Part shown: positions 1 to 3,402 of the stretch, piece by piece
Numbering within the stretch: the stretch's first letter is position 1
Layout: each line of letters begins with the position of its first letter
Source of the DNA: a virus
Taxonomy: Duplodnaviria > Heunggongvirae > Uroviricota > Caudoviricetes
Virus record (IMG/VR): IMGVR_UViG_2778261300_000007
Length of the DNA stretch: 3,402 nt
Strand: one strand, 5' to 3'
The notes under the pieces: model-generated
What the model saw: only the letters and a program-made list of their open reading frames with translations
Databases searched by the model: none
Told to the model about the DNA's origin: nothing
Translations under genes and position numbers: made by a program

Positions 1-1143
1 CTATGCTGTTTTGATATCTACGATAATCCAGTCTTTACCACGATCATCATTGTATCGGTCGGTCATTTTTCTGGATTTATGGCCTAACAACTTTTGCGTA
101 TCCAGACCCTGTTCCCGATATAACCGTTCTGACAGAGATCGCTGCTCATGAAATGTGGGCGCAGTTCCTTGCTCCCATTTTATGCCACATTTTTCCCTGG
201 CCTTTTTAAAAGCCGTTGTCAGAGTATTTGCAGAAACCTGGTCTCCTCTGTTTGCTTGAGAGGTAGTGTGACGGTAATGGACCAGATATTTACTAACAAC
301 AGCATCCCTGCACTGAGATATAACTTCACGAAGGGTAATATTCAGAGCATCGCATTTCAGGTTAAGCGGAATAGCAAGTTTTGAACCGGTTTTTTCCTGA
401 GTAATGTGCAACATGTCGTCCCAGATATCAGAGAATTTCAAATTGCAGATATCACCTAAACGTTGTCCAGTAACAAGAGCAAGTAGCATGCCGCATTTTA
501 AATAGGGCTGCCGTCTGCTTACGCTTTCAAATATTGCCTGCCATTCGGGCAGTGACAATCTTTGGCGGTTTACTCGATTTCGCGGTTGTTTTGTTGCCTG
601 CGCTGGGTTAAATCCTGGCGGAACATGTCCTGCGTGTTGTGCTTCTTTGAAGACGTCGATCAACACCATTCTCACGACTTGCGCCATCCTGTTATGACCT
701 TCAGCCTTTACAGCATCAATTATTTCGGCAATATCAAGTGCGGTAATATCCTTGAGGTGTTGCATTCCACAATGCTCACGGAAAAGACGAATGGGTTTGC
801 CTTTTTGCCGATAGGAGTTGGGTCTTAGTTCATTATGTTGCAGCCTGTCCTCCTGGATAGAAATATATTTATCAAGCCATTCTGTCACCGTAATGTCTGA
901 GCGCCTGCCTTTCATTCTTTCCAGACGCTCATTGACGCTTAATATTTGTCTGGTACGTTGTTCAGCAATAATGGTATTTGCTTCAGTAGCAACTTGTTTT
1001 GCTTCATTCTCATCAGTTCCTAAGCTATGAAAACGACCGGATAGTGGATGTTTGTATTGCCAATATACCTTTCCGGTTCGCTTATCTAATTTGCAATATA
1101 AATTGGGTATAGAGATTTTGTGAGATCGGGGTCTAGCAGCCAT
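1..1143 (-). CDS. int: Site-specific tyrosine recombinase, lambda-family phage integrase (380 aa, complete)
   Basis: Full ORF with ATG at 1143..1141 and stop at 3..1. Conserved lambda-Int-like catalytic motifs are present: TGQRLGD (Arg), HEQRSLSERLY (His-x-x-Arg), LLGHKS (His) and DRYNDDRGKDW (Tyr nucleophile), closely paralleling lambda Int TGQRVGD / HELRSLSARLY / LLGHKS / SQYRDDRGREW as recalled. The start overlaps the xis 3' end by 11 bp, the classic xis-int arrangement. Confidence 0.9.
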   Translation of the reverse strand: MAARPRSHKISIPNLYCKLDKRTGKVYWQYKHPLSGRFHSLGTDENEAKQVATEANTIIAEQRTRQILSVNERLERMKGRRSDITVTEWLDKYISIQEDRLQHNELRPNSYRQKGKPIRLFREHCGMQHLKDITALDIAEIIDAVKAEGHNRMAQVVRMVLIDVFKEAQHAGHVPPGFNPAQATKQPRNRVNRQRLSLPEWQAIFESVSRRQPYLKCGMLLALVTGQRLGDICNLKFSDIWDDMLHITQEKTGSKLAIPLNLKCDALNITLREVISQCRDAVVSKYLVHYRHTTSQANRGDQVSANTLTTAFKKAREKCGIKWEQGTAPTFHEQRSLSERLYREQGLDTQKLLGHKSRKMTDRYNDDRGKDWIIVDIKTA

Positions 1144-1369
1144 CAGCGATTATCCGTTGGAGTTTTGGGTTTGCGTTTATTGGGAGTTGCGGTTCTGCAA
1201 GCGTTCCTACAAAACGGGAATTTCGGTCAATCATCCAGTAGCGACCAACTTTTATAGCGGGTGGGGCCATCATTTTCCCTTGCGCGTATTTTTTCAGAAC
1301 TCGCTCACTTGGTGCTAAGTCCCCAAATTCTTCTTTAGCCCAGTCCTGTAAAGTGATTAGTCGAGACAT
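1133..1369 (-). CDS. xis: Excisionase / recombination directionality factor (78 aa)
   Basis: Immediately upstream of and overlapping int. The N-terminus MSRLITLQDWAKEE... and PPAIKVGRYWMI parallel lambda Xis MYLTLQEWNARQ... and PPPVKDGREYLF (winged-helix Xis fold). A strong SD (GAGGAGG, complement of 1374..1380) lies 4 nt upstream of the ATG at 1369..1367. Confidence 0.8.
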   Translation of the reverse strand: MSRLITLQDWAKEEFGDLAPSERVLKKYAQGKMMAPPAIKVGRYWMIDRNSRFVGTLAEPQLPINANPKLQRIIADGC

Positions 1370-2112: not shown

Positions 2113-2328
2113 TCACCGTTCCTTAAAGACGCCGTTTAACATGCCGATCGCCAGGCTTAAATGAGTCGGTGTGAATCCCATCAGCGTTACCGTTTCGCGG
2201 TGCTTCTTCAGTACGCTACGGCAAATATCATCGACGTTTTTATCCGGGAACTGCTGTCTGGCTTTTTTGATTTCAGAATTAGCCTGACGGGCAATACTGC
2301 GAAGGGCGTTTTCTTGCTGATGTGTCAT
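2113..2328 (-). CDS. Hypothetical protein (71 aa from ATG at 2328; the ORF track gives a 93-aa version from the ATG at 2394)
   Basis: Open frame ending at the TGA at 2115..2113. The internal ATG at 2328..2326 overlaps (ATGA) the stop of the candidate 27-aa micro-ORF and has a weak GGGA upstream. The longer start at 2394 has no SD, and its extension (MHFSGSGLHILCAYACRHGTCS) is Cys-rich and atypical. Start choice is unresolved. No recognisable family motif. Confidence 0.5.
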   Translation of the reverse strand: MTHQQENALRSIARQANSEIKKARQQFPDKNVDDICRSVLKKHRETVTLMGFTPTHLSLAIGMLNGVFKER

Positions 2329-2408
2329 TGAACAAGTCCCATGTCGGCAAGCATAAGCACACAGAATATGAAGCCCGCTGCCAGAAAAATGCATTCAGTG
2401 GTTGTCAT
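2325..2408 (-). CDS. Candidate 27-aa hydrophobic micro-protein (MTTTECIFLAAGFIFCVLMLADMGLVQ), not in the ORF track
   Basis: Reverse-complement translation of 2408..2325. The ATG (2408..2406) overlaps the TGA stop of the 74-aa ORF (2407..2405) as ATGA, and its TGA stop (2327..2325) overlaps the ATG of the 71-aa ORF as ATGA. It exactly fills the 77-nt gap and has a purine-rich stretch (GAGAGAGACCAGG) upstream. The hydrophobic core suggests a single short membrane helix. Confidence 0.3.
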   Translation of the reverse strand: MTTTECIFLAAGFIFCVLMLADMGLVQ

Positions 2409-2629
2409 ACCTGGTCTCTCTCATCTGCTTCTGCTTTCGCCACCATCATTTCCAGCTTTTGTGAAAGGGATGCGGCTAACGTATGAAATTCTTCGTCTGT
2501 TTCTACTGGTAGACCTCTAAATCGTGCACAGGCTCTGGCGAAGATCGCAGAAATCAAAGCTAAGTTTGGGCTGAAAGGAGCAAGTGTATGACGGGCAAAG
2601 AGGCAATTATTTATTACCTGGGGACGCAT
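2405..2629 (-). CDS. Doubtful 74-aa ORF (hypothetical); may instead be non-coding divergent control region
   Basis: ORF present in the track, but there is no SD upstream of the ATG at 2629 and the first 14 codons are antisense to the well-supported plus-strand Cro-like ORF. The only in-frame alternative start (TTG) also lacks an SD. The C-terminal part is protein-like and its stop is ATGA-coupled to the micro-ORF, so it is not excluded. Confidence 0.2.
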   Translation of the reverse strand: MRPQVINNCLFARHTLAPFSPNLALISAIFARACARFRGLPVETDEEFHTLAASLSQKLEMMVAKAEADERDQV

Positions 2630-2761
2630 AAGAGTTTCTGTGCGCAGGACGTTGCTGCGGCAACAGGTGTGACAGTAACCTGCATAAATCAGGCAGCAGC
2701 TAAAATGGCGCGTGCAGGAATCCTGGTCATTGATGGTAAGGTCTGGCGAACGTTTGTTTAA
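2588..2761 (+). CDS. Small Cro-like helix-turn-helix DNA-binding protein (57 aa), not in the ORF track
   Basis: ATG at 2588 preceded by a strong SD (AAGGAG at 2575..2580, 7-nt spacer); stop TAA at 2759..2761. The translation MTGKEAIIYYLGTHKSFCAQDVAAATGVTVTCINQAAAKMARAGILVIDGKVWRTFV has HTH plus beta-hairpin spacing like lambda Cro ([30 protein letters not shown] as recalled, versus ATGVTVTCINQAAAKMARAGILVIDGKVW). It is divergent from the leftward small-gene operon. Confidence 0.5.
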   Translation: MTGKEAIIYYLGTHKSFCAQDVAAATGVTVTCINQAAAKMARAGILVIDGKVWRTFV

Positions 2762-2907
2762 CGGTTAGCTACTCAGGATGATAGGGCGCGGCAAGTGAGT
2801 ATGAAGCGGATTTTCAGGAATGCCATCAGAGTTTGGAAATAAAGTGGGTTTTCTAGTGGCAAGAGACTTGATAATATTTAGTTCTTTGAAGCCAAGGAGA
2901 TAGGGTT

Positions 2908-3402
2908 ATGAGAAAATTTATTTTAGCCTTTGTCATAAGTGCCTCGTTTACAGCAAATGCTGGTGTAGAGAAGTTAGGGCCGTGGATAACAAAGTCTGAG
3001 ATAAATAAAATGACTGACCAGACTGACTTTGTGGCTCTTAATTTATCACCAGATTCATATAACAAAGCAGGTACTGATCGTGCAACTTCACTGGTGTTGC
3101 GTTGTAGTGATAACAAAACAGATGCCTATTTATCATTCAATGATTATATGGGTTCGGACAACCCAAGAATTACAGTGCGGTTAGATGGCGGAAAGCCGGT
3201 CAAGAGTGTTTGGGGTGGTGGGGAAGGCGGCGATTCTGCATTTGCTCCACAACCAATACAATTTATAAAGACCTTGGCTAAGCATAAAAAAGCTATTTTT
3301 GGGTTTGAACCTTATGGATCAACTATGCAAGTAGTTGAGTTTGACTTGTCTGAGATTGATAAGGTTGTGGAAAAAATTTCACAGTCTTGCAATTGGAAAT
3401 GA
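2908..3402 (+). CDS. Exported (periplasmic/secreted) protein of unknown function with N-terminal signal peptide (164 aa)
   Basis: Strong SD (AAGGAG at 2895..2900, 7-nt spacer) before the ATG at 2908; stop TGA at 3400..3402. The N-terminus MRKFILAFVISASFTANA-G has a basic n-region, hydrophobic core and A-x-A signal-peptidase I site. The mature part has exactly two Cys (possible disulfide) and a Gly-rich loop (VWGGGEGGD). No catalytic motif recognised. Confidence 0.75.
   Translation: MRKFILAFVISASFTANAGVEKLGPWITKSEINKMTDQTDFVALNLSPDSYNKAGTDRATSLVLRCSDNKTDAYLSFNDYMGSDNPRITVRLDGGKPVKSVWGGGEGGDSAFAPQPIQFIKTLAKHKKAIFGFEPYGSTMQVVEFDLSEIDKVVEKISQSCNWK

Follow-up and report, generated by a model that had tools for sequence, protein, structure and literature searches.

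The question raised by this locus is whether the gene for a small exported protein, with which the analysed stretch of Caudoviricetes DNA (3,402 nucleotides, record IMGVR_UViG_2778261300_000007; hereafter the window) ends, is transcribed from a promoter of its own. Morons are additions to phage genomes that stand out by a deviant G+C content, carry their own promoter and terminator, and are expressed from repressed prophages (PMC3594210). The motif TGATAATAT, located shortly before the start codon, is proposed here to be the functional sigma-70 extended -10 promoter of such a moron cassette, a reading to which the sequence evidence gives a probability of roughly 70%.

Most of the window belongs to another part of the phage genome. 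From position 1 to about 2511 it is the leftward int-xis-early-left block of a lambdoid prophage of the phage-21 type. This block shares 98-99% identity with phage 21, 4A7 and related records and includes, in addition to the integrase and excisionase genes, a DUF4222 gene, a TraR/DksA-like gene and further small genes. A terminator-like hairpin (GGAGCTACAGGCTCC followed by a T-run) is found on the minus strand of this block at 2076-2090, within the early-left operon and downstream of a 93-codon leftward gene (2113..2394). The block ends at a deletion junction, as phage matches to int-xis-early-left stop at 2511 and matches to prophages with P, ren and the exported-protein gene begin at 2508; the annotation of P in a related E. 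coli locus (L001, strain EC21Z-014) terminates at the equivalent of position 2591. Because the early-left genes abut this remnant of P, the immunity and replication region has been lost, namely pL, cI, pR, cro, cII, O and most of P. No co-directional phage promoter is left upstream of the exported-protein gene in the window, and the early-left genes run antisense to the plus strand left of 2508. The window is thus a deleted prophage of the DLP12 kind, in which pR is missing upstream of this gene. Its exact junction occurs in none of 5,426 complete E. coli genomes and in none of the examined loci; two of these loci (L015 and L019) contain deletions that resemble the junction and are not identical to it.

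The open reading frame directly upstream, which a sequence-only reading had taken for a Cro-like gene, is in fact a truncated Ren that follows the 3' fragment of P. Its product is 85% identical to residues 1-55 of lambda Ren, DNA homology to lambda ren is lost between 2832 and 2856, and RefSeq labels the equivalent position of L001 as "protein ren, frameshifted; internal stop". Truncation of ren is tied to insertion of the cargo gene. Phage IdasGreatGrand, which is viable, carries this truncated ren ahead of the cargo gene (L003, 3809-3982), and Ren is therefore dispensable. The window sequence AAAGTGGGTTTTCTAG (2844-2856) resembles the 3' half, GCGGGTTTTGTCG, of the terminator found upstream of the element in relatives (L060, 2925-2946) and is also similar to the 3' end of lambda ren, AAACGGGTATTGGCG; only the GGGTTTT half of that terminator persists beside the ren remnant in the window lineage. 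It may be speculated that short microhomology mediated the transfer of the cassette into ren. The coordinates of all features are collected in Table 1.

Table 1. Features of the window and parts of the shared expression module, with positions in window coordinates.
Feature	Position	Strand	Remarks
Integrase	1..1143	-	phage-21-type int
Excisionase	1133..1369	-	
Chimeric ORF spanning the junction	2405..2629	-	
Deletion junction, early-left genes / P fragment	~2508-2511		flanking interval 2505-2515
3' fragment of lambdoid replication gene P	2508..2591	+	last 84 nt
ren pseudogene	2588..2856	+	open part 2588..2761, 57 codons
Putative weak -35-like TTTTCT	2849..2854	+	3/6 matches; 17-nt spacer
Extended -10	2869..2877	+	TG 2869-2870; free base a2871; hexamer TAATAT 2872..2877
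Predicted transcription start	2883..2885	+	6-8 nt past -10; usual sigma-70 geometry; leader ~23-25 nt
Ribosome-binding region AAGGAGATAGGGTT	2894..2907	+	SD AAGGAG 2894..2899
Moron cargo gene	2908..3402	+	ORF, 164 aa, low G+C; VasI/TagO-like, IalB-like predicted fold
Module part 1			intrinsic terminator, T tract overlapping TTGTCG -35
Module part 2			spacer, ~17 nt
Module part 3			extended -10 TGnTAnnnT
Module part 4			leader, ~20 nt, ending GGGGATAGGGAT-ATG

On the single sequence, the element is present as had been described, with 30 nt from T2877 to the ATG at 2908. Its TG, at -15/-14, lies exactly one base before the hexamer, as in extended -10 promoters, and the hexamer TAATAT agrees with the -10 consensus at four of six positions, including the critical T-12, A-11 and T-7. 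An alternative hexamer, GATAAT, is present at 2870..2875. The -35 had rightly been called weak, since TTTTCT, with half of its bases matching, is the best candidate; it stands where relatives have TTGTCG overlapping the T tract of the upstream terminator. The three positions at the ideal distance for the predicted start are T, C and T, that is, without a purine. Before the start codon, AAGGAGATAGGGTT matches the GGGGATAGGGAT block that immediately precedes the ATG in relatives and in other morons.

As a motif, however, the element does not stand out from its own sequence background. A sigma-70 position weight matrix, self-built from textbook frequencies, ranks the TGATAATAT site as the best plus-strand site in 2762..2900 and only 29th of 6,732 positions window-wide; when the intergenic segment is shuffled, 1,090 of 2,000 versions (55%) score as high. 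The pattern TGNTANNNT occurs six times in the window (expectation 8.1 +/- 2.9), and a two-hexamer promoter scan of the window did not list the site. Taken alone, the motif is not above chance, and it acquires significance only from its conservation in relatives. A search of the whole window against Rfam (E <= 1) gave no match, indicating that no known riboswitch or small RNA lies in the leader. Neither 2815-2870 nor the leader (2878-2940) folded better than shuffled sequences (z -0.04 and -0.97), which argues that the window lineage has neither an upstream terminator nor an obvious leader structure. In a rival reading, TGATAATAT is a chance match in A+T-rich DNA and the gene depends wholly on read-through from pR, available in intact phages, so that it would be silent in the deleted prophage. 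Both the chance-level score of the single sequence and the lack of a terminator between ren and the gene in the window lineage, by which read-through from upstream is physically possible, speak for this reading; it is nevertheless judged unlikely, for reasons that come from the relatives.

Relatives of the 164-aa protein were found at 81, 79, 74, 68, 60 and 55% identity in IMG/VR prophage contigs and in a protein collection, and derive from E. coli, Salmonella, Citrobacter, Enterobacter, Klebsiella, Pantoea and Serratia. A scan for the protein in one genome per GTDB species returned pattern matches and no confirmed relative, so that all relatives come from IMG/VR, the protein collection and E. 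coli genomes. Since the upstream genes differ between relatives, so do the 5' flanks, which are not related to each other. Of 15 lineage representatives, 12 nevertheless have exactly one TGNTANNNT within the 120 nt before the ATG, and its end is invariably 30-37 nt from the start codon; these counts are not independent events, the relatives being homologous. The variants are TGcTAGGAT, TGaTAGGAT, TGtTAGGAT, TGcTACTCT and TGcTAACAT. The exceptions are two lineages at 68% identity that read GGGTAGGAT, in which G-14 is retained and the T is shifted by one base, and one lineage (L059) whose upstream region is unrelated and in which the motif is absent.

An unanchored MAFFT alignment places TGATAATAT of the window on the elements of the relatives. 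Across eight lineages, 14 of the 87 ungapped upstream columns are invariant, and these include G2870, T2872, A2873 and T2877, that is, four of the five specified motif positions (p ~0.002 by a hypergeometric estimate). G-14 is invariant, and 9 of 11 lineages have T-15. Pairwise identities are close to the random level, ~0.2-0.35, at the -13 base, in the spacer between -35 and -10 and over most of the leader; these values come from an alignment anchored on the motif, which is circular for the motif columns and therefore informative for the flanks only. In several lineages, the distance from a -35-like TTGTCG or TTGTCC to the -10 is held at 16-17 nt with a changing spacer sequence, and in the window lineage the part comprising TTGTCG and the terminator has been lost and the spacing is 1-2 nt shorter. 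Among approximately 43 close copies of the E. coli type, the stretch from -35 to -10 is invariant, but with eight polymorphic sites in 160 nt this invariance is not significant (estimated p ~0.2), and polymorphism is too sparse for a selection test. A chance match leaves unexplained why the TG, T-12, A-11 and T-7 are fixed, at a constant distance from the ATG, while flanks, spacers and leaders diverge. A sigma-70 extended -10 promoter, by contrast, would be expected to leave just this pattern.

The same comparison decides the register of the hexamer. The fixed positions are those of the TAATAT register, which is therefore preferred over GATAAT, whose relatives' counterpart lacks the last T. 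A plain -10 at GATAAT without the TG extension, or alternatively a sigma-54 promoter (TGGCAA-N5-TTGAT at 2857..2872), would account for transcription in another way, and the two are together considered highly improbable. GATAAT matches TATAAT at five of six positions, yet in relatives this register reads GCTAGG, GATAGG, GCTACT or GCTAAC, with loss of the essential last T, and in the window its best -35 lies at a 15-nt spacer and its matrix score is 1.7 vs 6.1. TGGCAA-N5-TTGA resembles the sigma-54 consensus TGGCAC-N5-TTGC; the sequence at 2857-2872 is TGGCAA-GAGAC-TTGAT, with GA instead of GC at -12, and it is missing in all other lineages, on which grounds the candidate was rejected. What had been tentatively proposed from the window by itself, a promoter with an extended -10, a weak -35 and expression independent of the upstream gene, is supported by conservation in relatives in the TAATAT register, and the GATAAT register offered alongside it is not retained. 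Two further candidates were discarded: a Fur box in GATAATATTTAGTTCTTTG, which by our own count has approximately 10 of 19 matches and is absent from relatives, and a minus-strand -10, TATTAT (complement of 2871-2876), for which the complement in relatives (TCCTAT and others) is not -10-like.

Conservation of TGnTAnnnT could also reflect something other than a constitutive sigma-70 promoter. The element may be read by sigma-S, or a regulator may bind a TAGGAT core, and expression would then be conditional; little credence is given to this account. C at -13 is the base favoured by sigma-S, and many relatives read TGCTAnnnT with a C at this position, but the window has an A there, and no column of the block is less conserved than -13 (pairwise identity 0.25). 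The retention of TAGGAT in several lineages goes beyond the needs of a plain -10 and would suit a regulator; against this, the central three bases of the hexamer vary across the module (CGA, ATC, ACC, GGA, CTC, TCA and others, with ATA in the window), and no dyad symmetry conserved across lineages was detected by eye. Since sigma-S and sigma-70 share nearly one -10, recognition by sigma-S would refine the explanation favoured here, an extended -10 promoter, more than compete with it.

The surroundings of the element correspond to those of a self-contained transcription unit. In relatives, an intrinsic terminator whose T tract overlaps the -35 lies directly before the element (for example ACCCGCTTAACTGCGGGTTTT, -13.7 kcal/mol, z -3.4), with a different terminator in the same place in Salmonella (-19 kcal/mol, z -3.3), and a second terminator lies just past the stop codon. 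A strong terminator directly upstream of the element is a further feature that a chance match leaves unexplained. For the window lineage, the downstream terminator is seen in L001 (6912-6933), where a 9-bp stem and a T-run (-12.2 kcal/mol, z -2.7) begin 17 nt past the stop codon, which corresponds to 17-38 nt outside the window end. G+C content is 33-42% over 2800-3400, save for one 100-nt peak, vs 45-53% over 2300-2800. At the same site, lambda has only ren-tR2-ninB and the K-12 prophage DLP12 has emrE. The arrangement of truncated ren followed by the cargo gene is present in only 79 of 5,426 E. coli genomes and in 1 of 50,697 phage records. Most relatives are situated between the tail-assembly-chaperone region and the tape-measure gene, the slot that gene 15 takes in HK97; the term "moron" was introduced for that element (PMC3594210). 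Between the cargo gene and ybcN/ninE, E. coli EC21Z-014 has a HEPN-domain gene and a hypothetical gene that overlaps it (L001, 7360-8156); the two may form a defence or toxin-antitoxin pair within this cargo hotspot.

The block that precedes the cargo gene in relatives is not confined to this gene family. The succession of terminator/TTGTCG, ~17 nt, TGnTAnnnT, ~20 nt and GGGGATAGGnnATG also occurs ahead of unrelated genes; one locus (L061) has, directly after its VasI-like cassette, a second module at 3551-3613 with TGcTAATCT before a gene for a 193-aa protein. A scan of IMG/VR for GGGGATAGGGATATG yielded at least 119 non-redundant sites. Among the matches listed, 85 of 119 sites have TGnTAnnnT 25-40 nt before an ATG, with a mode of 31 nt, and these 85 represent at least 16 different 9-mers in which the central three bases vary freely. 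The cargo at GGGGATAGGGATATG sites falls into at least 43 BLAST clusters, some of them chance, and at least about 30 unrelated families with the module, for the most part exported proteins or lipoproteins. In the matches listed, 62 of the 83 module-bearing genes encode a signal peptide by a crude criterion and 19 of 83 a lipobox; a terminator-like hairpin lies within 110 nt downstream in 62 of 83, and the next gene is an ORF of at least 500 codons in 27 of 83. This recurrence ahead of unrelated cargo genes is likewise left unexplained by a chance match. Loci with the module (GGGTTTTGTCGTT ... TGnTAnnnT ... GGGGATAGGGATATG) include L061 (3538-4191), L065 (2668-2925) and the IMG/VR loci L094-L317, and in Enterobacterales prophages the module is sometimes stacked in tandem and often stands before the tape-measure gene.

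Since the module is reused with different cargo, the block is probably regulatory and neither coding nor gene-specific. On balance, TGaTAATAT ... AAGGAGATAGGGTTATG in the window seems to represent, in diverged form, a portable moron expression module that would combine a standard promoter and ribosome-binding site with a homology patch for swapping cargo. The promoter/RBS part would serve lysogen-expressed surface or periplasmic proteins, and the homology patch would allow cargo genes to be exchanged between phages. Literature searches on the module or on morons at the tape-measure slot, in an incomplete library, found only a general moron review (PMC3594210), and no paper on the cargo gene was found there.

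Together, these observations suggest how the gene could be expressed. The cassette would be a self-contained unit of promoter, gene and terminator, inserted after truncated ren in the early-right (nin) region of a lambdoid prophage. RNA polymerase holoenzyme would bind through the TG and T-12, A-11 and T-7, and with recognition of these bases the poor -35 would matter little. Transcription would start near 2883-2885 and yield a short monocistronic mRNA with a leader of ~24 nt, from which the 164-aa exported protein would be translated by way of the SD AAGGAG, and it would terminate at the hairpin and T-run just beyond the window. Having its own promoter, the gene could be expressed from a repressed prophage, and also from the deleted prophage of the window, which lacks pR, cI, O and most of P; in intact relatives, such as phage IdasGreatGrand, read-through from pR would add to its expression during lytic growth. 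Promoter activity, the start site, the sigma factor and expression in the lysogen are inferred from the sequence elements, their conservation and the architecture of the cassette.

The cargo protein carries a Sec-type signal peptide, MRKFILAFVISASFTANA. Over its C-terminal two thirds only, it matches the Pfam family VasI (PF11319) with 26.7 bits, just above the cut-off of 26.5. It belongs to PHROG 1848, a group without an assigned function; neither this protein nor the ren-derived one has a match in NCBIfam, and a profile search against PDB sequences gave no match. Its AlphaFold2 model (pLDDT 85.9) has as best PDB match 3DTD, the Bartonella protein IalB (TM ~0.6, E 2e-4). RefSeq names the protein TagO. 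There are no type VI secretion system (T6SS) genes near the cargo gene, and the inspected copies all lie in prophage replication/nin or tail modules, so that the RefSeq name should not be taken as a function and is probably misleading. Literature on TagO in connection with prophages, as far as it was found, dealt with genuine T6SS tagO genes only.

If the promoter is active, the gene is a lysogenic-conversion gene, and a periplasmic IalB/VasI-like protein would be made while the prophage is silent, even from a decayed prophage that is incapable of growth. This is the normal logic of a moron, and the finding confirms the pattern and overturns nothing: the element is of an ordinary kind within a known class of moron promoters, and what mild novelty there is lies in the shared expression module. 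The analysis also corrects the annotation, in that the ORF upstream encodes Ren instead of Cro and the cargo gene is that of a prophage moron instead of a T6SS, fixes the register of the promoter and predicts a start site. Furthermore, the signature TGnTAnnnT, ~20 nt, GGGGATAGGGAT-ATG could help to recognise cargo genes of Enterobacterales prophages that are expressed in lysogens.

Several known systems offer points of comparison. The cargo protein resembles VasI/TagO, an accessory protein of the T6SS, in its weak Pfam match and its RefSeq name, and differs from it in lacking a T6SS cluster; in its predicted fold, the invasion-associated protein IalB of Bartonella (3DTD) is nearest. Extended -10 (TGn-TATAAT) promoters of sigma-70 are found in E. 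coli and its phages, as in the lambda pRE/galP1 type, and a survey by Mitchell et al. in 2003 reportedly touches on them. The element shares with this class a TG one base before a hexamer that keeps T-12, A-11 and T-7, a poor -35 and a distance of ~30 nt to the start codon; its hexamer is TAATAT, with TAGGAT, TACTCT or TAATCT in relatives, where the class has TATAAT.

At the level of the prophage, the window resembles DLP12 of E. coli K-12, which has the order intD-xisD-exoD'-peaD-renD-emrE: both have int and xis, a deletion that fuses early-left remnants to a fragment of P, a ren pseudogene and a foreign cargo gene of low G+C. The cargo of DLP12 is emrE and not a VasI-like gene, and the integrase of the window is of the phage-21 type, other than that of DLP12. 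At the level of the cassette, the counterpart is gene 15 of HK97, on which Juhala et al. are said to have defined the phage moron in 2000. HK97 gene 15 was rejected both as a homologue and as a carrier of the module, which is missing from its upstream sequence. Unlike gp15, a 62-aa membrane protein, the cargo described here is a 164-aa predicted periplasmic IalB/VasI-like protein, and the window copy lies in the ren/nin region and not in the HK97 gene-15 slot. Like that moron, however, it is a single extra gene of deviant G+C content, with its own putative promoter and an intrinsic terminator, placed between conserved genes.
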